Positions 14,402 to 27,462 of a DNA stretch of 32,000 nt are shown one piece after another. The number at the start of each line of letters is the position of its first letter. The stretch's first letter is position 1. The position numbers and the translations under genes are program-made. Below the pieces are notes generated by a model. The model was not told where the DNA came from. It made no database searches and worked only from the letters and a program-made list of their open reading frames with translations. This DNA comes from Ignicoccus hospitalis KIN4/I (GTDB lineage: Archaea; Thermoproteota; Thermoprotei_A; Sulfolobales; Ignicoccaceae), in contig NC_009776.1 in NCBI RefSeq assembly GCF_000017945.1, forward strand, positions 60,001-92,000, given 5' to 3'.

Positions 14402-15472
14402 TTGTTGTACGCGCGCTACCCCTTCGTTGGCAGCGTATCCAAGCTTTCTAAGAGGATGTTTGGCGTCGAGATGGACGTAGAGGAACTGCTTGACCTATAT
14501 CCAAATGCCATTGATTTAGCTAAAGCGATGGTAGAGGGGAGGGGTCCAGCCGAAGACGCCGGTTGTGACGACTTGTGTGCGGTCTTGGCTTACAGAATAG
14601 CCTTAGTCCTCGTAGCGGCTGCCAGAAGCAATTGGTTGAGGAACAACTTTGCAGTAAACGTAGCCAAGCGTGCGAGCGAGTTCTTTAAGAAAGAGGGCAT
14701 AGAGACCGTCGTAGGGGTGTTGAAGGCCTGCGGCTTCTGGGCGGAAGTCTTGAGGGAACCCTTGAGGGTGCCCTTGAGGCAACAGAGGGGAGCGGTCTAC
14801 GCCGAGGAGTACTTGGTGAGGACGACACTAATGGATTACGTCAGGTTGGCCAAGAGGTTCCTCAGCGACCCCACTTGGAAGGTGGTTAACAAGGCCTTGT
14901 TAGGAGGCTTCGTCTACTTAAAGGAGGAGGAGCTGCGGAGGCTTGCAGAAGAAGCGGTCGTAATTAAAGTTCTCGAAGACTTGAGGGAACTCGGCGACGT
15001 CGACCCCCAAGCCTTGCCAGAGAGGTTCAAAGGGGTGCTGGAGGAGCTCAAAACGAAATACATGGCGAAGAGAAGTAGCGCGGATATCAAGATAAAGGGG
15101 TTCGAGCCGAGGGCGCTTCCTCCGTGCGTCCGTTCGATTTACGAGAGGGCCCTCCAAGGGGATAACCTCTCGCATCAAGAGAGGTTCACACTAGCTACGT
15201 TCTTATTGAACGTAGGTAAGGACGTAGAAGACGTATTGGAAGTTTTCAAGAACATGCCCGATTACAACGAGCGCATAGCGCGTTACCAAGTGGAGCACTT
15301 GGCGGGCCTCAGAGGCTCACATAAGAAATATTCTCCACCTTCGTGTAAGACTTTAGTCTCGTGGGGACTGTGCCCAGGAAAAGACGAGTGTAAGGGCGAT
15401 CACCCGTTGAAGGAGTACTGGAGGAGGCTCCGCAGGCTCACCAAGGCTCCCTCTCGGGAACCACGACCTTAA
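14402..15472 (+). CDS. priL: DNA primase large subunit PriL
   Basis: 356 aa. The C-terminal Fe-S domain pattern is PPCVRSIYERALQGDNLSHQERFTLATFLLNVG...YQVEHLAG..G..KKYSPPSCKTLVSWGLCPG, carrying the four Cys ligands. Confidence 0.88.
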   Translation: MLYARYPFVGSVSKLSKRMFGVEMDVEELLDLYPNAIDLAKAMVEGRGPAEDAGCDDLCAVLAYRIALVLVAAARSNWLRNNFAVNVAKRASEFFKKEGIETVVGVLKACGFWAEVLREPLRVPLRQQRGAVYAEEYLVRTTLMDYVRLAKRFLSDPTWKVVNKALLGGFVYLKEEELRRLAEEAVVIKVLEDLRELGDVDPQALPERFKGVLEELKTKYMAKRSSADIKIKGFEPRALPPCVRSIYERALQGDNLSHQERFTLATFLLNVGKDVEDVLEVFKNMPDYNERIARYQVEHLAGLRGSHKKYSPPSCKTLVSWGLCPGKDECKGDHPLKEYWRRLRRLTKAPSREPRP

Positions 15473-16121
15473 CCCCCAAGGCCTCGGCCAACTCCTTGAA
15501 CCTCAGAGCATCATCTATCGAACCCACTATAGTTCCCCAATGCATGGGTATTGCTACTTGCACTCCCTTTATTATCTTCAAGGCCTCCGCCGCCTCTTCG
15601 GCGGTCATGACGTACACGCCCGAGACGGGTAACATGGCGACGTCCGTCACGACCTCAGCCATCTCCGGGATAACGTCGGTGTCCCCAGCGTGGTAGAAGG
15701 TCACCCCTCCTAGCTCGAAGACGTAGCCGACCCTCCCGTCCTCCTTAGGGTGGAAGACCACGCCCGGCGCTCTGAACTTGTTCACGTTGTATGCCGGAAC
15801 CGTGCGAAACTTGACGCCTACTACTTCACCCTCTTCGAAGGGGGCCACGAATACTTTCTCGTTAGGGAAGACTGACAGACAGTCCTCAGCTATCGGCGGC
15901 GCGACTATTACGGTCTCCGGGGATATGACTTGCGCTATGTCCTTGGGCGAGCAGTGGTCGAAGTGCTCGTGGGTAATGAACAAGACGTCCGCCTTCTGGT
16001 TGCTGGCCGAAACTATTCTGAAGGGGTCTATAGCGACGGTCAGCTCGCCGTCGGTGAGCTTGAAGCCGTCGTGGCCCAGCCACGAGACCTCGACTCCTTC
16101 TATGTATATCATCGGGCTCAC
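15438..16121 (-). CDS. Metallo-beta-lactamase-fold hydrolase (UPF0173-like)
   Basis: 227 aa. It has FITHEHFDHC (the HxHxDH motif), a later FYHAGDT and IPMHW. It overlaps the priL 3' end convergently by 35 nt. Confidence 0.8.
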   Translation of the reverse strand: MSPMIYIEGVEVSWLGHDGFKLTDGELTVAIDPFRIVSASNQKADVLFITHEHFDHCSPKDIAQVISPETVIVAPPIAEDCLSVFPNEKVFVAPFEEGEVVGVKFRTVPAYNVNKFRAPGVVFHPKEDGRVGYVFELGGVTFYHAGDTDVIPEMAEVVTDVAMLPVSGVYVMTAEEAAEALKIIKGVQVAIPMHWGTIVGSIDDALRFKELAEALGVKVVVPEREPW

Positions 16122-16161: not shown

Positions 16162-16518
16162 TCACTTGGCCCCTTCCTTTGGAATTATACATATGAAGCG
16201 GAGGACCTCGTCTCCGGTGTTCTTGTAGTAGTGCTTGGAGCACGGAGGTATGTACAGAACGGTCCCGGGCCCCACTTCGTACTCTTCCCCGTTTATTCTT
16301 ACTATCCCTTTACCGTTAAGCACGAATATCTCGTGCTCCCAAGGGTGGGAGTGTTCGAATATTTCGCCTCCAGGCTCGACCTCGAAGACCCTCAAGTAGA
16401 ACGTAGGGGCCTCCCCGGGCCCTATGACCCAGCGGATAGTGGTCTTGGTGGCGACCTCACGGGGGACCTCCTTTGCTTCTACCTCATCCCACTTGACCAC
16501 CTTCGGCTTACAGACCAC
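16162..16518 (-). CDS. Cupin-domain protein
   Basis: 118 aa, GTG start. Cupin motif 1 is GGEIFEHSHPWEHEIFVLNG and motif 2 is GPGTVLYIPPCSKHYYKNTG. Confidence 0.8.
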   Translation of the reverse strand: MVCKPKVVKWDEVEAKEVPREVATKTTIRWVIGPGEAPTFYLRVFEVEPGGEIFEHSHPWEHEIFVLNGKGIVRINGEEYEVGPGTVLYIPPCSKHYYKNTGDEVLRFICIIPKEGAK

Positions 16519-16677
16519 GGCTTCCCCTTACGCTTTTACGAGCTTTGGGTTAAAGCTGGAGTTGGGCCCCGCCGTTCCCGGCGACGGCTGGGAGGCCTCG
16601 ACGCCCGCTCCAAGCGGGCGGATGGGCAACCCGCCTCCACGGCGGGGCACACGTCACTTTCGGCCCTCGCCGGCCAA

Positions 16678-16685
16678 CTATAAAC
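16678..16685 (+). promoter_or_regulatory. TATA-like box upstream of the giant NTPase gene
   Basis: The box aaCTATAAACc is centred about 37 nt upstream of ATG 16719. Confidence 0.4.
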
Positions 16686-16715: not shown

Positions 16716-19700
16716 GTGATGGATTGCGGGCCCCTGCCCAAGAGGGCGCCGAGCATAACGGGTAAGGACGTATCCAACTTACTTAAGGAGCTGTGGGAGG
16801 CCGGGGTCAAGATTAGAGAAGAGGTAGAGAACGTCGTAAGGTCGTTCTTGAACATGGTCGCTAACGCCGAAGAGACGGTTTCTATGTTTGTAATTGGAGA
16901 ATGGGGAGAGGGAAAGACGAGCGTATTCGATGGTTATATGAAGGCCCTAAAGCCACCGAACGTCGTATTAATGGAGACCAGCGTAAAGCGGGTAGTATCT
17001 AGCATTAGAAACATGAAGCACCAACCGGGCCAGTCCTCGGCCGCCACCTTCTTGGCTGCTCTGTTACACTCCTTAGCGATGGAGTACATGGAGAAGGGGG
17101 AGAAGCTGATAGAACCCTACGAGGGAGGCCCGGTTCACGAGTACGCGAAGAAGGCTTTGGACGAGCTGGCGAGCAAGTTCCCCGGGAAGAAGTTCGTCGT
17201 GTTCATAGACGAGTTCGAAGAAATAGTGTCGCCGTCAAACAAGGACGTCGTGAAAGAGATAATAAACGGGTTGATAGAACTAATCAACGGCCAGTTCGGA
17301 TACATGCAAGAGAAGTACCCCGGAATACTCCACCTAGTAATTGCTATGACTCCTTACGCCTATCACAAGGCATTGAGTTTAGCGGACATAGACGAGAGCT
17401 TGAAAGGGAGGGCCGAGAGGAGGCTCCACTTTAAGCTGGAGCTTAGGTCCCTCACGAGGAGCGAGGCCTACAAGCTGGTGGGCTCTCTGTTCAAGTATTC
17501 CTACGGGGAGGAGTTCTCGCCGGTCCCCCCTCAGTTCGTCAACACGATATATACGGCCTCTCAAGGGAACCCGGGCGCCCTAACGAGCTTGACGAACTTC
17601 GTCATGAGCTCGTTAGTTAAGGACGGTTGTACGGTCCCTTCTAAGAACCCTGAGGAGCTCGTCTCGATACTGTCCGGCGCCACCGTCTTCACCTACGTGG
17701 GCTCGAGCAAAGCCTTGGACAAGTTGTACTACGAGAAGGCGCTCTTACCCCTAACTTACGGTGAGGAGGACAAGAGGAAGGTCTTGGCCGCTCTAGCGGC
17801 CTACTACTACCCGCTCTCCGAACGGGAGTTAGACGAGCTCAGCGGCGTCAAGGGCGCCAAGGAAGCTCTGGAAGTGCTGGACCAGAGGGCGTCCTTGAGC
17901 TCAGAGCCCTTGGTTTCGACCGTCTGGAGGACTTCCGACTACCAGAAGGCCTTTAACGTGTTCCGCACTACCTTGAAGAGTTTGATCCCGGACATAGACG
18001 ACGACACTTTGAAGATGTTGGTAGAAGAGCTCACTTACCCCAAGGGCCTCTGGAGCGAGGAGTACTACTTAGTCCTCCCCGGCGAGGGTGAGGAGTCGGT
18101 CTTAGAGGACGTCTTATCCAAGGAAAAGGCTGTAGTCGACGCGAGGAAGTTGGTTAACTTCCTCAAGCGGAAGATGGAAGAAGAGGGGGTAACTTTCGAG
18201 AAGGCGTATATGTTGTCTCGAAAGCACGCCTTGAACCTCTACCCGCCCCCCGCCGTGGCCGCGGCCTCTTTCATAAAGGACCCCCAGCTCAGGGCGAAGG
18301 CTTGGAAGGAGGCGTTAAATGCTCTAATTAAAGGAGATATAAACTTAGATAAGGTTTTCGCCGAGGTGATAATAAATTCGTTCAAGGGTACGATAGTTGG
18401 TAGGCTGGTGAACGTCGCCCTAGGCGACGTGCAGCTCAGGATATACCCCAAGGTTATCCTTTCCTTGGATAGTAAGGCTTTGGAGGAAGTGGCGAAAGAG
18501 GCCAAGAGGGACGGCGCACACCTGATGATAATACTCACTAAGCCGGAGTTGTACGAGACGATAAAGGACAAGGCCTCTCTGCTCCCAGTGGACGCCGTAG
18601 TTTTGGAAGCCAGGGAGGCCAAGCTAGTGCAAATGGCTGTCTACGAGCTCTACGCGAGGAAGCCGGAGAGGAGGGCCTTCGTGGACGCGGAGAAGGCGGC
18701 GCTGACGCTGAAGCAGATAGGTGACGAGATAGGCGTCCCGAAGGCTATAGAGAAGTGGATAGATAAGGCCCGCCAAGAGGGCGTAATAGTGGAGGACTTC
18801 AAGAGGCCCTCCGGGGCCAGCGAGGAGGCCATCTCGGACGCTTATGCTTTCTACTTGGCCTATCCGAAGGACGTGCTCACCACCGAGGACGTGTTTGAAC
18901 ACGTAATCAAAACTGTCAGAAGGTTCATAATTTACGGAAGGGGCTCCAGGAGGAAGGCTCCGTTCTCTTCTGGCTTAGACATTGAGAACGTGAGGGGATT
19001 GAAGAGGTTCGAGGAGGACTTGGTAAGTGCGGGGCTGTTGGAAAGGTTAGAGGACAACAAGCTGAGGATCACAATAAGCAAGGTGGAAGAGAGGCTCTTA
19101 AAGCTGTTGAAGGAGAAGGGAGGCAAGGCGGCTTGGAGGGAGCTCGAAAAAGAATTCATAGTGGTTTCGCATAACAAGAGAATACTCTCGGATTTCTACT
19201 TGAAGATATTAGAGAGGAGGGGGTTAGTGAGGGTAGATAGGAGGGGGAACGACCCCTACTTCGTCAGCTTAGTAAACACCAAATCCTTAGTGGAGGAGTT
19301 GGAGAACTGGTTGGAAAAGATAAACGAAATATGGAGCTCTAACGGCGAGGCGTGGAAGAGCTACGCCCACATAGTCGTCTCGAAGAAAAAGGAAGACAAT
19401 GTCATAGTGTTGGACGAAATCAAAGATTACGTGACTAAGGGAGTGGTCTCATTGAGGTCTGAGGCCTCCAAAGCGACCGTCGCCAGGAGGGCGGCCTTCC
19501 TCATATCCCTCTCCCGCTACCTCGTGGAGACGTTATACCCCGTCACCCACAAGGCGTGGACCGAGGCCAACGACCTAATGGACTCGACTAGCAGCTCGGT
19601 GACGTCGACGATATCCAAGATAAGGAGCGTCTTGAGCAAGGCGTCCGGGGAGGTGGGCGTTCCGGTATTGGACGCAGAAGAAATGAAAGAAAGTGTAATG

Positions 19701-20897
19701 ATAAAGAAAATGTTACGCAAGATGGACGAGTTAGCGGACAAGTACTTCACGCGAGAGGAGTTGGAGAAGCTCGTGGCCGAGATGAGGAAAGAAGGCGTCT
19801 TGCCGGACAAGTTCTATTTCGAGCGCTTCTACGACCCGCGCGAGTGGAAGAAGGCCTCGTACTTCAACGTTAAGTACTACATACTCGAAAGACACGCCGA
19901 AGAGATAAAGAACGAGCTCGAAAAGATAAACATATTGATCAAGGAGATAGACAACATGATATCGCGGATGGTAGAGGGGAGGAGGAGAGTTGAGGAGAAG
20001 TTGAAGGAGCTCTCTTTGAAGAGCTATAACAGCGAGCTGGCTTCTAAGGCATACGAAGTGCTGTTGAGACAAGTTATGATGCCTAAGGAAGTCTTACCCG
20101 ACGACTTGACCGTGGACTCGCTGGAGGAGCTCCGCTCGACGCTGGACAGAGCTCTCTCCAGCGTTAGCATGACGGATCAGAAGATCCTGAGCGTAATTGT
20201 GAAGCTGGGCGAGGTGGCGAGGGAGGAGGAAGAGCTGGAAAAGGAGTTGAGGAGGCTTAAGAGTTGGTGCTCCTTCGCGTCGAAGTTCTATTCCGGCACG
20301 CCGTACTGGGACGACTTCGAGGGCCTCTGTGAGAGGTTGAACTCCTTAAGGTTGGCCTACGAGAGCGCGAGCAAGGAGGTAAGGGAGCCCGCCTCGGTAA
20401 GCGAATTGAGCGCGGTTCTGGAGGGCATCAAGGAGGAGTTGAGGAAGCTCAAGCGCGAGGCCGAGGGTTTATTGAGGGAAATGAAAGAGGTACACGAAAG
20501 GGCGATGAAGGAGCTCGAGAGGAACTTGAGCGAGCTGAAGAGGATAAGTAGGGTAGCGATCAAGCTGGGCTTGAATATAGAAGACATTAACAAAGCGCTA
20601 TCGTCTGTGGAGTTAAAGATGAAGTCCGTAAAGCCCCCCGGGGTGGTGGAGAACGTCACCTACCAAACTTTGTACGACGCGCTCGAGAAGACTAGGACGT
20701 TGTTGACGATAAAGCTGAGGACGAAGATAAGCCAGAACGAGGAGAAAGTGCTAAGCGTCTTAGAGAAGGGTAAGCTGGACTTGGTAAAGTTAATAGAGGA
20801 GTGTAAGAAATTAAAGCTCGGGGAAGAGGAGGTCGTAAAGGCGCTCGTCCAGCTCGCCGAGAAGGGGTTGGTTAGGGTCGTAGTCGAACTCTCTTAG
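16716..20897 (+). CDS. Large (1393 aa) P-loop NTPase with winged-helix-like modules and a C-terminal coiled-coil region; family unassigned
   Basis: A continuous 4.2-kb ORF (GTG 16716, ATG 16719). Walker A is GEWGEGKTS (nt 16896-16922) and Walker B is FVVFIDEFEE (nt 17193-17222). The lid is AAA+/ORC-like: RRLHFKLELRSLTRSEAYKLV...QGNPGALTSL. wHTH-like segments include KAAWRELEKEF...ILERRGLVRVDRRGNDPYFVSL and the C-terminal VKALVQLAEKGLVRVVV. The region at about aa 930-1330 is E/K/L-rich. Confidence 0.85.
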   Translation: MMDCGPLPKRAPSITGKDVSNLLKELWEAGVKIREEVENVVRSFLNMVANAEETVSMFVIGEWGEGKTSVFDGYMKALKPPNVVLMETSVKRVVSSIRNMKHQPGQSSAATFLAALLHSLAMEYMEKGEKLIEPYEGGPVHEYAKKALDELASKFPGKKFVVFIDEFEEIVSPSNKDVVKEIINGLIELINGQFGYMQEKYPGILHLVIAMTPYAYHKALSLADIDESLKGRAERRLHFKLELRSLTRSEAYKLVGSLFKYSYGEEFSPVPPQFVNTIYTASQGNPGALTSLTNFVMSSLVKDGCTVPSKNPEELVSILSGATVFTYVGSSKALDKLYYEKALLPLTYGEEDKRKVLAALAAYYYPLSERELDELSGVKGAKEALEVLDQRASLSSEPLVSTVWRTSDYQKAFNVFRTTLKSLIPDIDDDTLKMLVEELTYPKGLWSEEYYLVLPGEGEESVLEDVLSKEKAVVDARKLVNFLKRKMEEEGVTFEKAYMLSRKHALNLYPPPAVAAASFIKDPQLRAKAWKEALNALIKGDINLDKVFAEVIINSFKGTIVGRLVNVALGDVQLRIYPKVILSLDSKALEEVAKEAKRDGAHLMIILTKPELYETIKDKASLLPVDAVVLEAREAKLVQMAVYELYARKPERRAFVDAEKAALTLKQIGDEIGVPKAIEKWIDKARQEGVIVEDFKRPSGASEEAISDAYAFYLAYPKDVLTTEDVFEHVIKTVRRFIIYGRGSRRKAPFSSGLDIENVRGLKRFEEDLVSAGLLERLEDNKLRITISKVEERLLKLLKEKGGKAAWRELEKEFIVVSHNKRILSDFYLKILERRGLVRVDRRGNDPYFVSLVNTKSLVEELENWLEKINEIWSSNGEAWKSYAHIVVSKKKEDNVIVLDEIKDYVTKGVVSLRSEASKATVARRAAFLISLSRYLVETLYPVTHKAWTEANDLMDSTSSSVTSTISKIRSVLSKASGEVGVPVLDAEEMKESVMIKKMLRKMDELADKYFTREELEKLVAEMRKEGVLPDKFYFERFYDPREWKKASYFNVKYYILERHAEEIKNELEKINILIKEIDNMISRMVEGRRRVEEKLKELSLKSYNSELASKAYEVLLRQVMMPKEVLPDDLTVDSLEELRSTLDRALSSVSMTDQKILSVIVKLGEVAREEEELEKELRRLKSWCSFASKFYSGTPYWDDFEGLCERLNSLRLAYESASKEVREPASVSELSAVLEGIKEELRKLKREAEGLLREMKEVHERAMKELERNLSELKRISRVAIKLGLNIEDINKALSSVELKMKSVKPPGVVENVTYQTLYDALEKTRTLLTIKLRTKISQNEEKVLSVLEKGKLDLVKLIEECKKLKLGEEEVVKALVQLAEKGLVRVVVELS

Positions 20898-21365
20898 GAA
20901 CTCCTCCACGTCGCCGTCGAACATCTTAATTATTTCGAGAAAATGGAGCTTGGTGTATTTGTTGATTTCAACCAATACGACCCCCGCTTTGGGTTGGCCG
21001 TACAGCAGCGCCCACCCGTTCTCCGAGCTCAAGAGGGCCGGGATGGCGAGGAGGTCTTCCTCCCCCTCTACCTTTACCCAAGTTGAGGTTAGGATGGCCT
21101 TCTTCACTACCTTGGCCGCGTCCAAGCAGATCTGCCCGGGAGGGTTGAAGGCCTTCAGCACCCCGTTGGGGGCCCTCAGCTCCACCCACTGCGACCTCCT
21201 CGTCTTGCCGTCGAAGATCGCCGTTCTAGGCACTAAGCCTAGTTCTAAGCACCTTTTGGTAGTCACGTCTCCTACAGTTACCAACGTCTTTCCTCTTAAG
21301 AGAAACGGTAGGAGGCGGTCGTCCTTCACTAACGCCCCTCTGGGGGACGCCAAGAGCGTTCGCAA
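20811..21365 (-). CDS. GTP-dependent dephospho-CoA kinase (DUF359/UPF0218 family)
   Basis: The core is LASPRGALV...TLVTVGDVTTKRCLELGLVPRTAIFDGKTRR...VEGEEDLLAIPALL...ALLYGQPKAGVVLV. The conserved archaeal gene order rpoE'-spt4-DUF359 is present. I place the start at TTG 21365 (184 aa); the track's 21521 start would overlap spt4 by 142 nt. Confidence 0.75.
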   Translation of the reverse strand: MRTLLASPRGALVKDDRLLPFLLRGKTLVTVGDVTTKRCLELGLVPRTAIFDGKTRRSQWVELRAPNGVLKAFNPPGQICLDAAKVVKKAILTSTWVKVEGEEDLLAIPALLSSENGWALLYGQPKAGVVLVEINKYTKLHFLEIIKMFDGDVEEFLREFDYDPNQPLLGELDERLYDLLFPEL

Positions 21366-21379
21366 GCTCTGGGGCAGCC

Positions 21380-21592
21380 TTACTCCCTTCCCACTTCTAC
21401 AGCGTAGCGCCCCGGCTCCTTGAGGTACTCTACCTTGCCCACGAGTTCCGAGTCCGTCTTGATCAATATTATCATTCCTTCCCAGTTCTCCGTCAAGTCC
21501 GTGGAACCGCACCTCGGACACCTCGTGACCTCAGGCCTTCGGGGTACGAGGAACCTACAGTTCATACACGCCAAGAAGGGCTTCCTCTTCAT
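21380..21592 (-). CDS. spt4: Transcription elongation factor Spt4 (RpoE'')
   Basis: 70 aa. The zinc ribbon is CMNC...CPRC, followed by WEGMIILI. It overlaps rpoE' by 4 nt (ATGA). Confidence 0.9.
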   Translation of the reverse strand: MKRKPFLACMNCRFLVPRRPEVTRCPRCGSTDLTENWEGMIILIKTDSELVGKVEYLKEPGRYAVEVGRE

Positions 21593-22128
21593 TGCTTGAC
21601 CTCCTCCGCGTCCTTAATTTTACCCAAGTACGGGCCTTTCATACTCATACCCACCTTGAGGCCCCTCCTGGTCGAAATCTGTACTATCCTAGCCCTAACG
21701 AGGTCTCCCCTCTTTATGACCGTTTTCGTGCTGGTGCCTACCATGCTCCCGGTCGCGGCGTCGTACTCGAAACGCTCGTCGCCGAGCTGGGCCTTGTGCA
21801 CCATACCGTCTATGGGGCCTATGTTAACGTATATCCCGTTCTTGGTAACGTTAACTACTATGCCCTCAACTACCTCGTTCCTCAAGGGCTTGAAGGCGAG
21901 CAAAGTGAAGGTGGCCTCGTGGTAAGTGCCTCCGTCGCCCGGCACTATGTAGCCCTCGGGGGAGATGTCCACGTCAGTTACTGTCAGAATTATGCCGAGC
22001 TCCTCGTCTATCACGCCCTCGTACTCCTCCCTGAGGAGTTCGAGAGCGACCTTCTTCAAGTCCTCGCCGAACCTCTCGGGCGGTATTCTAACCATGTCTT
22101 TGAAGCGGTAGATCCTGTACAACTCCAC
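21589..22128 (-). CDS. rpoE: DNA-directed RNA polymerase subunit E' (Rpo7)
   Basis: 179 aa, GTG start. It has DMVRIPPERFGEDL, VTDVDISPEGYIVPGDGGTYHEATF and the S1 domain EVVEGIVVNVTKNGIYVNIGPIDGMVH. Confidence 0.92.
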   Translation of the reverse strand: MELYRIYRFKDMVRIPPERFGEDLKKVALELLREEYEGVIDEELGIILTVTDVDISPEGYIVPGDGGTYHEATFTLLAFKPLRNEVVEGIVVNVTKNGIYVNIGPIDGMVHKAQLGDERFEYDAATGSMVGTSTKTVIKRGDLVRARIVQISTRRGLKVGMSMKGPYLGKIKDAEEVKQ

Positions 22129-27385: not shown

Positions 27386-27462
27386 GCCCCCGTAGCTCAG
27401 CCAGGAAGAGCGCGGGCCTTCGGAGCCCGTGGTCGCGGGTTCAAATCCCGCCGGGGGCGCCA
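27386..27462 (+). tRNA. tRNA-Arg(TCG): tRNA-Arg (anticodon TCG), with an encoded CCA
   Basis: The sequence is GCCCCCGUAGCUCAGCCAGGAAGAGCGCGGGCCUUCGGAGCCCGUGGUCGCGGGUUCAAAUCCCGCCGGGGGCGCCA. Acceptor is GCCCCCG/CGGGGGC. Anticodon stem is CGGGC/GCCCG with loop CU-UCG-GA. The T arm is GCGGG-UUCAAAU-CCCGC. Confidence 0.93.

Follow-up and report, generated by a model that had tools for sequence, protein, structure and literature searches.

The ATPase BrxC of the BREX (bacteriophage exclusion) systems has a published layout in which an AAA+ (ATPases associated with diverse cellular activities) domain of the ORC/Cdc6 type is followed by a winged helix-turn-helix (wHTH), an α+β region, a second wHTH and a coiled-coil extension, and it is believed to serve as the scaffold that links a modification arm with an effector arm (PMC12839542). 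In BRC, a BrxC-like DUF6079 ATPase is accompanied by HerA, PglZ, a STAND NTPase and DUF4007, and sometimes by GNAT and TGT (tRNA-guanine transglycosylase) (PMC10853773, PMC12839542). Here we describe gene X, which lies on the + strand at 16719..20897 of a 32,000-nucleotide stretch of the Ignicoccus hospitalis KIN4/I genome (NC_009776.1, positions 60,001 to 92,000; the whole of this stretch is referred to as the window) and encodes an AAA+ ATPase that belongs to the ORC/Cdc6 clade, of 1392 aa with a BrxC-like architecture. Its relatives in other genomes lie in a gene cassette, NurA–HerA–X–DUF5591–TGT, to which the ‘HerA/FtsK capture systems’ and BRC come closest among published systems. We give about equal weight, for and against, to the reading of X as a BrxC-like hub ATPase in an undescribed cassette of NurA, HerA and 7-deazaguanine enzymes, of which Ignicoccus keeps X alone; the cassette itself we infer to be a system of the modification–restriction type.

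The X family and its linked genes

The extent of the X family was determined by a HMMER profile search with a shortened X alignment against 1.84 billion cluster representatives. This gave 304 proteins at E ≤ 1e-3, of which 202 reach E ≤ 1e-30; almost all are 1390-1480 aa long, and the few matches and uniform length therefore mark a small, sharply bounded family that does not grade into ORC or BrxC. The I. hospitalis protein is homologous over its full length to this family of ~1400-aa proteins and shares its GEWGEGKT, FIDEFEE and F-N-x-K motifs; 18 full-length homologues were aligned. A scan of one genome per GTDB species found 43 X loci. The archaeal ones belong to the Desulfurococcales (Ignicoccus, Pyrodictiaceae, Ignisphaera), Bathyarchaeia, Aenigmatarchaeota, Korarchaeota (Methanodesulfokora), Hydrothermarchaeum, Thermoplasmata, Archaeoglobales and Nitrosopumilus, and six loci are in metagenome-assembled genomes (MAGs) labelled bacterial. 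The family is thus found patchily across archaea, and no X relative was present among the IMG/VR viral contigs and PLSDB plasmids. A reading of the window made from its letters and open reading frames (ORFs) without database searches, here called the sequence-only reading, had pointed to the Thermoproteales for comparison; the host is in fact a member of the Desulfurococcales. A rough neighbour-joining tree of X has three clades: one linked to NurA and HerA, one of Desulfurococcales/Pyrodictiaceae with X–NurA or X alone, and a monophyletic Ignicoccus clade in which no partner was found beside X. In four Desulfurococcales loci (L030, L031, L033 and L039) X is split into an ATPase part of ~600 aa and a C-terminal part of ~890 aa, the two ORFs being adjacent and on the same strand with NurA directly after them; either a natural gene split or a frameshift could account for this.

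In distant homologues of X (22-26% identity), NurA and HerA lie directly upstream on the same strand, with stops and starts that overlap or nearly touch, and in another group of loci NurA lies directly downstream of X. Partners were counted over the 43 loci with hidden Markov models (HMMs) built from the first neighbours and by clustering of all flanking ORFs, which placed NurA near X in 32 loci, HerA in 24, a TGT-fold gene (~345 aa) in 19 and DUF5591 (180-260 aa) in 12-16. Among the 32 loci with enough flank to be informative, NurA adjoins X in 25: NurA, HerA and TGT are all present in 17 and NurA only in eight, and six of the seven loci with neither belong to the Ignicoccus clade. DUF5591 is nearby in most of the NurA–HerA–X–TGT loci. 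The sequence-only reading had entertained a partnerless family or a single-gene system, an idea which these counts contradict. Across the 22 cassette loci, TGT was found in 18 and DUF5591 in 16, and among their 131 flanking ORFs none of the other Pfam families is seen in more than two loci; PglZ, a PglX-type methyltransferase, a STAND NTPase, DUF4007, DpdB and DpdC are not among the families recurring beside X in these 22 loci. The outer flanks are variable and hold integrases, AbiEii-like ATPases, PIN, QueC and one D12 methylase, and also ribosomal genes.

The genes of the cassette share a history. Pairwise distances between X proteins correlate with those of NurA (Mantel r = 0.90), HerA (r = 0.94) and TGT (r = 0.52), with none of 2000 permutations as high, and thus NurA, HerA, X, DUF5591 and TGT appear to have been inherited together. 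X is the largest, most divergent and fastest-evolving gene of the set, with a mean pairwise identity of 29% versus 40% for NurA, 53% for HerA and 43% for TGT.

The linked partners, adjacent and co-oriented, carry NurA (PF09376) and HerA (PF01935) domains. Acidic residues and a histidine of the X-linked NurA (D58, E117, D133 and H282), which we take to be the NurA catalytic residues, are invariant. The X-linked NurA profile matched no solved NurA in the PDB and the X-linked HerA reaches 87 bits where the equivalog cutoff is 800, and the two therefore constitute a dedicated pair of divergent paralogues and not the canonical NurA–HerA. A second DUF87/HerA-like gene, which is more divergent, is found directly upstream of NurA–HerA–X in locus L003 (3469-5100).

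The remaining two partners resemble enzymes of 7-deazaguanine metabolism. The TGT partner retains DSGGFQ, GVDxxD and a CxCxxC...H zinc site and scores 42-56 bits against a DpdA cutoff of 200, and it is well below the TgtA cutoff too. In the DUF5591 partner there is a match to the central part of archaeosine synthase (ArcS), together with the ArcS motif C-x3-KPY-x2-S-x2-H (e.g. GCSAHKPYSKSFIH; motif taken from PMC5699537). Both proteins are without a tRNA-binding PUA domain. Within a collection of phages and viruses, matches to the DUF5591 partner are confined to the adjacent TGT + DUF5591 pair of the Sulfolobus viruses STSV1, STSV2 and STSV4, and the same gene pair gives the strongest viral matches of the TGT partner (E = 3e-15 and 4e-23). 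In STSV1 (AJ783769.1, 19343-20621) and STSV2 (JQ287645.1, 14611-15883), a TGT-like gene is found beside a ‘hypothetical protein’ with DUF5591 and the ArcS motif, 36-37% identical to the DUF5591 protein of the cassette, so that the viral pair mirrors the cellular modification arm. Archaeal viruses with such genes have been predicted to carry deazaguanines in their DNA (PMC6884629). Genes for preQ0 synthesis and uptake (QueC, QueT) directly follow the cassette in L001 (16165-17304), a nucleoside 2-deoxyribosyltransferase-like gene and a HAD hydrolase follow it in L003 (14046-15733), and in an Archaeoglobales MAG (L041, 9769-10857, − strand) an ordinary-sized Orc1/Cdc6-like gene of 363 aa is found directly after TGT.

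Predicted structure of the X protein and its relatives

Gene X is read from one uninterrupted ORF, 16716..20897 (+), of 1393 codons counted from a GTG at 16716, and residue numbers are counted here from that codon. Codon 2 is an ATG (16719). The product is 100% identical to I. hospitalis ABU81265.1 (WP_011998117.1, UniProt A8A8L3), and the length of ABU81265.1, 1392 aa, therefore makes ATG 16719 the probable start, with GTG 16716 as the alternative. Public annotation of A8A8L3 is limited to ‘AAA family ATPase’ or ‘uncharacterized’. The protein was modelled with AlphaFold2 (AF2) in two overlapping parts, aa 1-760 (pLDDT 81, pTM 0.70) and aa 561-1393 (pLDDT 85, pTM 0.60); coordinates of the domains below are on the + strand.

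The models begin with what is predicted to be an ordinary soluble AAA+ α/β core (aa 34-245, 16815..17450), which is also marked out by invariant columns, by Pfam/NCBIfam profiles (Pfam AAA, 2.2e-6; TIGR02928, 1e-6) and by Foldseek. The predicted core has five strands, the second of which is followed by a helix-extension-helix insert (aa 90-126), and within the core lie the Walker A motif GEWGEGKT (16896-16919), the Walker B motif FIDEFEE (17199-17219), sensor-1 (T212) and an arginine pair, R235/R236 (17418-17423), just before strand 5. It is followed in the AF2 model by a three-helix lid with a QGNPG motif (aa 248-299, 17457..17612), in which N285 and G287 are invariant. The motifs that had been picked out by eye are all where they were said to be, namely Walker A as GEWGEGKTS (aa 61-69), Walker B as FVVFIDEFEE (aa 159-168) and the ORC/Cdc6-like lid sequences RRLHFKLELRSLTRSEAYKLV (from aa 235) and QGNPGALTSL (from aa 283). 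Residues E62-T68, F163-E168, T212, R235/R236 and N285/G287 are invariant in the alignment of 18 homologues, and the motifs E62-W-G-E-G-K-T68, F163-x-D-E-F-E168, T212, R235/R236 and N285/G287 are also invariant across 31-46 more distant homologues; this invariance therefore identifies them as conserved functional motifs rather than chance resemblances.

Downstream of the lid, AF2 and Foldseek place a winged-helix region of two helix/strand units (aa 310-406, 17643..17933; H312-320, E323-332, H336-347, H351-395, E400-406), and the Foldseek alignments of X to Orc1 and BrxC run through it. The AF2 model then has a middle α+β region (aa 409-650, 17940..18665) that is predicted to hold a β-β-β-α-β-α-β unit at aa 558-647; only F519 and L582 are invariant in this region, no conserved acidic or lysine catalytic motif was seen in it, and a Pfam search of it was empty. 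A predicted helical linker joins it to a second winged-helix domain (aa 759-852, 18990..19271), which contains the invariant E791 and is preceded by a conserved DIE(S) motif (D755). Beyond this lie a conserved β-hairpin in the AF2 model, HIVVSKKKEDNVIV (aa 885-898, 19368..19409), with the family-invariant K890, and a helical bundle or ‘coiled-coil extension’ (aa 919-1334, 19470..20717; AF2 pLDDT 85) that holds the invariant F-N-x-K motif (aa 1050-1053, 19863-19874) and is the fastest-evolving portion of the protein. The protein ends in a three-helix winged-helix-like module of the AF2 model (aa 1340-1393, 20733..20894), where L1380 and G1384 are conserved. The three wHTH-like segments of the sequence-only reading therefore have counterparts among the modelled units, at about aa 310-406, about aa 759-852 and aa 1340-1393. 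Its heptad-like tail of about 400 aa was right as to a region of long helices and wrong as to a single coiled coil: the bundle is predicted to consist of four long helices of 52-62 residues each, with shorter ones, and the tail is therefore modelled as a fold-back bundle, not one 400-aa coiled coil. No CxxC was found in the helical region, and in X as a whole there is no effector domain, no nuclease, TIR, protease or pore motif and no Pfam domain outside the ATPase.

When the N-terminal part of X was compared with the PDB using Foldseek, the best matches were Aeropyrum pernix Orc1 (2v1u, E = 1.9e-7) and ORC2 (1w5t, E = 7.4e-7), with eukaryotic ORC4/Cdc6 chains also among the matches; the Orc/Cdc6 group spans E = 2e-7 to 1e-5. 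BREX BrxC chains rank after these (9zll_B, 5.3e-6; 9zdx_C, 1.4e-4), and theirs are the longest alignments, at 548-635 columns, the best of which has the lower root-mean-square deviation (10.1 Å). The order of domains in the AF2 secondary structure of both models, compared by secondary structure and Foldseek, agrees with the published BrxC order. The resemblance to BrxC that had been suggested from the size and layout of the ORF is thereby borne out at the level of fold, as is the wider description of X as an uncharacterised giant P-loop AAA+ protein whose lid is ORC/Cdc6-like and which has several winged helices and a helical tail.

Sequence comparison places X in no characterised family, as had been anticipated: Pfam, NCBIfam, PADLOC and PDB sequence models all fail to claim it. 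Pfam gives generic AAA matches, mostly sub-threshold; the NCBIfam Orc1/Cdc6 model TIGR02928 scores 27.9 bits against a cutoff of 181.3 and covers aa 34-179 only; and searches of the PDB by sequence, with the single protein and with a profile, returned coiled-coil and designed-bundle noise alone, all of it in the helical region. With no Pfam, NCBIfam or PADLOC model of its own, the family is therefore invisible to automatic annotation. The KAP/STAND flavour ascribed to its Walker A was not supported: KAP (PF07693) reaches 15.6 bits of the required 20, over aa 45-131 only, with weak matches in 4 of 31 members, nSTAND5 (PF25199) is at 11.9 bits against 34, and the best structural relatives are Orc1/Cdc6. 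The nSTAND5 profile does match 7 of 31 members (best E 7.9e-7), and the conserved GNPG of the lid is reminiscent of the STAND GxP motif. A PADLOC match to LmuB (3.7e-5) was rejected as compositional, being confined to the helical region (aa 1051-1350), and an analogy with Rad50, SMC or LmuB was likewise rejected, X having a single N-terminal AAA+ domain, a winged-helix C terminus and no split ABC head.

Gene X in Ignicoccus

Ignicoccus is presumably a genus with a streamlined genome. In its clade X is always found tail-to-tail with DUF359–Spt4–RpoE', a synteny seen in I. hospitalis, I. islandicus, I. pacificus and several vent MAGs, and the upstream side varies. The window holds no NurA, HerA, PglZ or methylase around gene X, in keeping with what had been noted from the sequence, and no adjacent NurA, HerA or TGT was found within 10 kb of X in I. 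islandicus, I. pacificus and related MAGs. Nor did iterated HMMs of NurA and HerA, at E ≤ 1, find anything in the window or in any Ignicoccus-clade locus, and a search of 5.8e9 proteins with the X-linked NurA profile returned no Ignicoccus protein among the best 120 of 178 matches.

The orphan is nonetheless well kept. It is full length (~1390 aa) and uninterrupted in three cultured species and several MAGs, at 41-76% identity, and it retains every family-invariant residue and all of the ATPase motifs. The identity of I. hospitalis X to its I. islandicus and I. pacificus counterparts is 47-51%, compared with 48-50% for DUF359 and 67-71% for RpoE'. Full length, retained residues and a DUF359-like rate therefore argue for a maintained gene and not for a remnant or a mobile island gene; on sequence grounds, Ignicoccus X is a functional gene evolving at the rate of the adjoining housekeeping gene DUF359. 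The sequence-only reading would have given up novelty had orthologues proved to be universally conserved, syntenic housekeeping genes: within Ignicoccus the gene is indeed conserved and syntenic with a housekeeping-like rate, but across archaea it is patchy.

Proposed mechanism and alternative explanations

In the mechanism that we propose for the cassette, the TGT/ArcS-like pair would insert a 7-deazaguanine derivative into DNA, and NurA–HerA would serve as the nuclease–translocase effector. On the model of ORC/Cdc6 and of the dimers and complexes of BrxC in the PDB, X would assemble on DNA in an ATP-dependent manner and would read the DNA through its winged helices; it would then license either modification or attack by NurA–HerA, coupling recognition to the effector as is supposed for BrxC in BREX. 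In Ignicoccus, X would work without linked partners, either alone as a DNA-binding ATPase or by recruiting unlinked enzymes such as the general HerA–NurA of the cell. The DNA target, the defence role, the oligomerisation of X and the activity of the orphan are all presumptive. A bolder form of the proposal would have X as the hub of an undescribed archaeal/bacterial immune system that marks DNA with 7-deazaguanine and destroys unmarked DNA via NurA–HerA, the Ignicoccus hub having been exapted to a core chromosomal function; this is possible, though unlikely.

Several points weigh against the proposal. The defence or modification role of the cassette is guilt by association, the target of the TGT could be tRNA, with DNA as the presumed one, and the functional reading of the family as a whole is a computational one. 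The likeness of X to BrxC lies in the predicted fold and in a domain order taken from secondary structure, with no profile link: the DUF6079 and DUF499 profiles do not match X at E ≤ 1, nor any of 31 diverse members at E ≤ 0.01, and the C-terminal 833 residues have no significant Foldseek match in the PDB (best local, DndG 7exx, E = 0.16). At the usual sensor-2 position, the lid of X has no arginine. The bacterial members come from MAG bins and are bacterial by label. In Ignicoccus, none of the inferred partners is nearby in the window and flanks covered, unlinked ones may lie elsewhere in the genomes, a divergent Ignicoccus NurA could be among the 58 weaker matches of the NurA profile, and conserved synteny with a housekeeping rate fits a core, non-defence role equally well.

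The best-surviving rival, and still a rather unlikely one, is housekeeping DNA-end processing, in which NurA–HerA–X would be a double-strand-break resection module with X in the end-recognition or tethering part that falls to Mre11–Rad50 in the classical herA-mre11-rad50-nurA operon, and the Ignicoccus protein would serve the general HerA–NurA in trans. It draws on the tight operonic linkage and co-evolution of X with NurA and HerA, on the invariant D58, E117, D133 and H282 of the linked NurA, as expected for an active nuclease, on the synteny and housekeeping-like rate of Ignicoccus X and on the absence of the family from the viral contigs and plasmids searched; moreover, a passage in PMC4641729 reports HerA–NurA in all thermophilic archaea. 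The X family is, however, rare and patchy across archaea and some bacterial MAGs, and the linked pair is divergent (HerA at 87 versus 800 bits, a NurA profile without a solved NurA). Resection would leave the conserved TGT and ArcS-like genes unexplained, it sits poorly with flanks that contain integrases, AbiEii-like ATPases, PIN and a D12 methylase, and X has an N-terminal AAA+ domain in place of a split ABC head with hook or hinge.

An enlarged Orc1/Cdc6 paralogue that was exapted to bind and organise the chromosome, as a replication, chromatin or segregation factor, is improbable. The best structural matches of X are indeed Orc1/Cdc6 and ORC subunits, its several winged helices and long helical arm would suit such a role, and within Ignicoccus it is stable and syntenic, with the gene for the primase large subunit 1.2 kb upstream. 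Yet the TIGR02928 score is 27.9 against 181, the family is absent from most archaea, and elsewhere the genes linked to X encode a nuclease, a translocase and base-modifying enzymes rather than replication proteins.

A stand-alone sensor NTPase, as had been suggested from the sequence, would be a STAND/KAP-like defence protein that senses an invader via its winged helices and acts alone, and it is slightly more improbable again. X has no partner in the window, some members give weak nSTAND5, KAP and AAA_16 matches, and X evolves faster than the rest of the cassette, as is usual for sensors; against this, the protein lacks an effector domain and any nuclease, TIR, protease or pore motif, the family-wide models are all under their cutoffs, its fixed position and housekeeping rate in Ignicoccus are unlike those of mobile defence genes, and the family is normally multi-gene. 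That X is a decaying relic of a lost cassette, functionless now, is very improbable and, judged by the sequences, largely refuted, for despite the loss of partners in Ignicoccus and the splitting of X into two ORFs in the four Desulfurococcales loci, the ~1390-aa ORF is uninterrupted in the cultured species and several MAGs, its ATPase motifs and family-invariant residues are all kept, and its rate equals that of the neighbouring DUF359.

If the hub reading of the cassette is correct, known parts would be newly wired, with an ORC/Cdc6-type hub coupling 7-deazaguanine modification to NurA–HerA, and NurA–HerA would gain a second, non-repair job. The cassette is mainly archaeal, and few defence systems have been characterised in archaea; it also defines a divergent TGT/ArcS-like pair that it shares with Sulfolobus viruses. 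Ignicoccus X is a natural experiment in which the hub has long been kept without its partners, and it is therefore a tractable thermostable protein for studying a BrxC-like ATPase that acts by itself. The cassette and its long-lived orphan merit experiments, and current ideas are not overturned by them.

Neighbouring genes and other features of the window

Gene X lies, as described in the sequence-only reading, between a cupin/MBL pair and an rpoE'–spt4–DPCK block, and its ORF is the largest, a statement that holds within the stretch examined (10-27 kb). On the upstream side, the metallo-β-lactamase (MBL)-fold gene (15438-16121, −) and the cupin gene (16162-16518, −) are on the strand opposite to X; the genes for GatE and PriL are among the neighbours too. 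Downstream and convergent are the DUF359 (DPCK) ORF (20811-21521, −, maximal extent), Spt4 (21380-21592, −) and RpoE' (21589-22128, −). The 3' end of X overlaps that of the DUF359/DPCK ORF by 87 nt (20811-20897), which leaves no space for a terminator between them; in I. islandicus (L010) the corresponding overlap measures 18 nt, and in a vent MAG (L008) it measures 9 nt.

A sequence TATAAA at 16679..16684 (+), 35 nt before the ATG of X, is plausible as its TATA box, and TATAAAC is found at the equivalent site upstream of X in L015. Between the cupin gene and X, at 16550-16650 (+), there is a very GC-rich, strongly base-paired element of ~100 nt, with a minimum free energy of −74 kcal/mol (z = −2.4 on the + strand and −1.0 on the − strand). 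It is present in one copy in the window, is near-identical at the same site in the MAG locus L012, though the X proteins are only 73% identical, and is absent in L015. No Rfam family matched it, and it is a candidate for a conserved small RNA or 5' regulatory element. The window also holds tRNA genes at 2809-2894 (−) and 27386-27459 (+), the first of which spans 86 nt against a 71-position model and may have an intron or a long variable arm.

Comparison with known systems

The literature searches found no mention of the X accession numbers. NurA is unmentioned in PMC12839542 and PMC10853773, the Ignicoccus genome and radiation papers have nothing on HerA, NurA or Rad50, and PADLOC 2023 has no model for X or the X-linked NurA. 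No publication was found that joins NurA, HerA, a transglycosylase, a defence system and archaea, a statement that covers the searchable literature only and does not prove novelty.

X is like BrxC/PglY (9zdx, 9zll; DUF6079) in its N-terminal AAA+ domain of the ORC/Cdc6 clade, into which a helix-extension-helix is inserted and in which an arginine precedes strand 5, in the succession of wHTH, α+β, wHTH and C-terminal coiled-coil extension, and in size, both being well above 1000 residues. It differs in having neither a DUF6079/DUF499 match nor a PDB sequence match, and in an extra C-terminal winged helix. Unlike BREX, no X neighbourhood contains PglZ, a PglX methyltransferase, BrxA or BrxB; the partners of X are instead NurA, HerA, TGT and DUF5591, and Ignicoccus X has none of these nearby.

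With Orc1/Cdc6 (2v1u, 1w5t), the top structural match to its AAA+ core, lid and first winged helix, X shares the initiator-type insert after strand 2 and the arginine finger before strand 5. It is ~1000 residues longer, however, has GEWGEGKT as its Walker A and no sensor-2 arginine, falls far below the TIGR02928 cutoff and belongs to a family that is not universal in archaea.

Among its partners, TGT-fold and ArcS-motif enzymes without PUA recall the Dpd system and the viral DpdA–ArcS genes, but the cassette has no DpdB or DpdC, its TGT scores far under the DpdA cutoff, and none of these genes is found in the Ignicoccus window. NurA and HerA are adjacent and co-oriented as in HerA–NurA(–Mre11–Rad50), but here the pair consists of divergent paralogues, and in place of Mre11/Rad50 there are X, an AAA+ and not an ABC/SMC protein, and base-modifying enzymes.

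BRC differs from the X cassette in having PglZ, a STAND NTPase, DUF4007 and GNAT with no NurA and no DUF5591, and in an ATPase that is recognised by DUF6079, as X is not. The defining feature of HerA/FtsK capture, a translocase beside an ORC/Cdc6-type ATPase, is seen for the X family in 24 loci, none of them in the Ignicoccus clade. What the X cassette has in common with BRC and the HerA/FtsK capture systems is the combination of an ORC/Cdc6 ATPase resembling BrxC with a HerA-type translocase, a nuclease effector and, at some loci, a TGT, as well as a distribution that is sparse and crosses domains.

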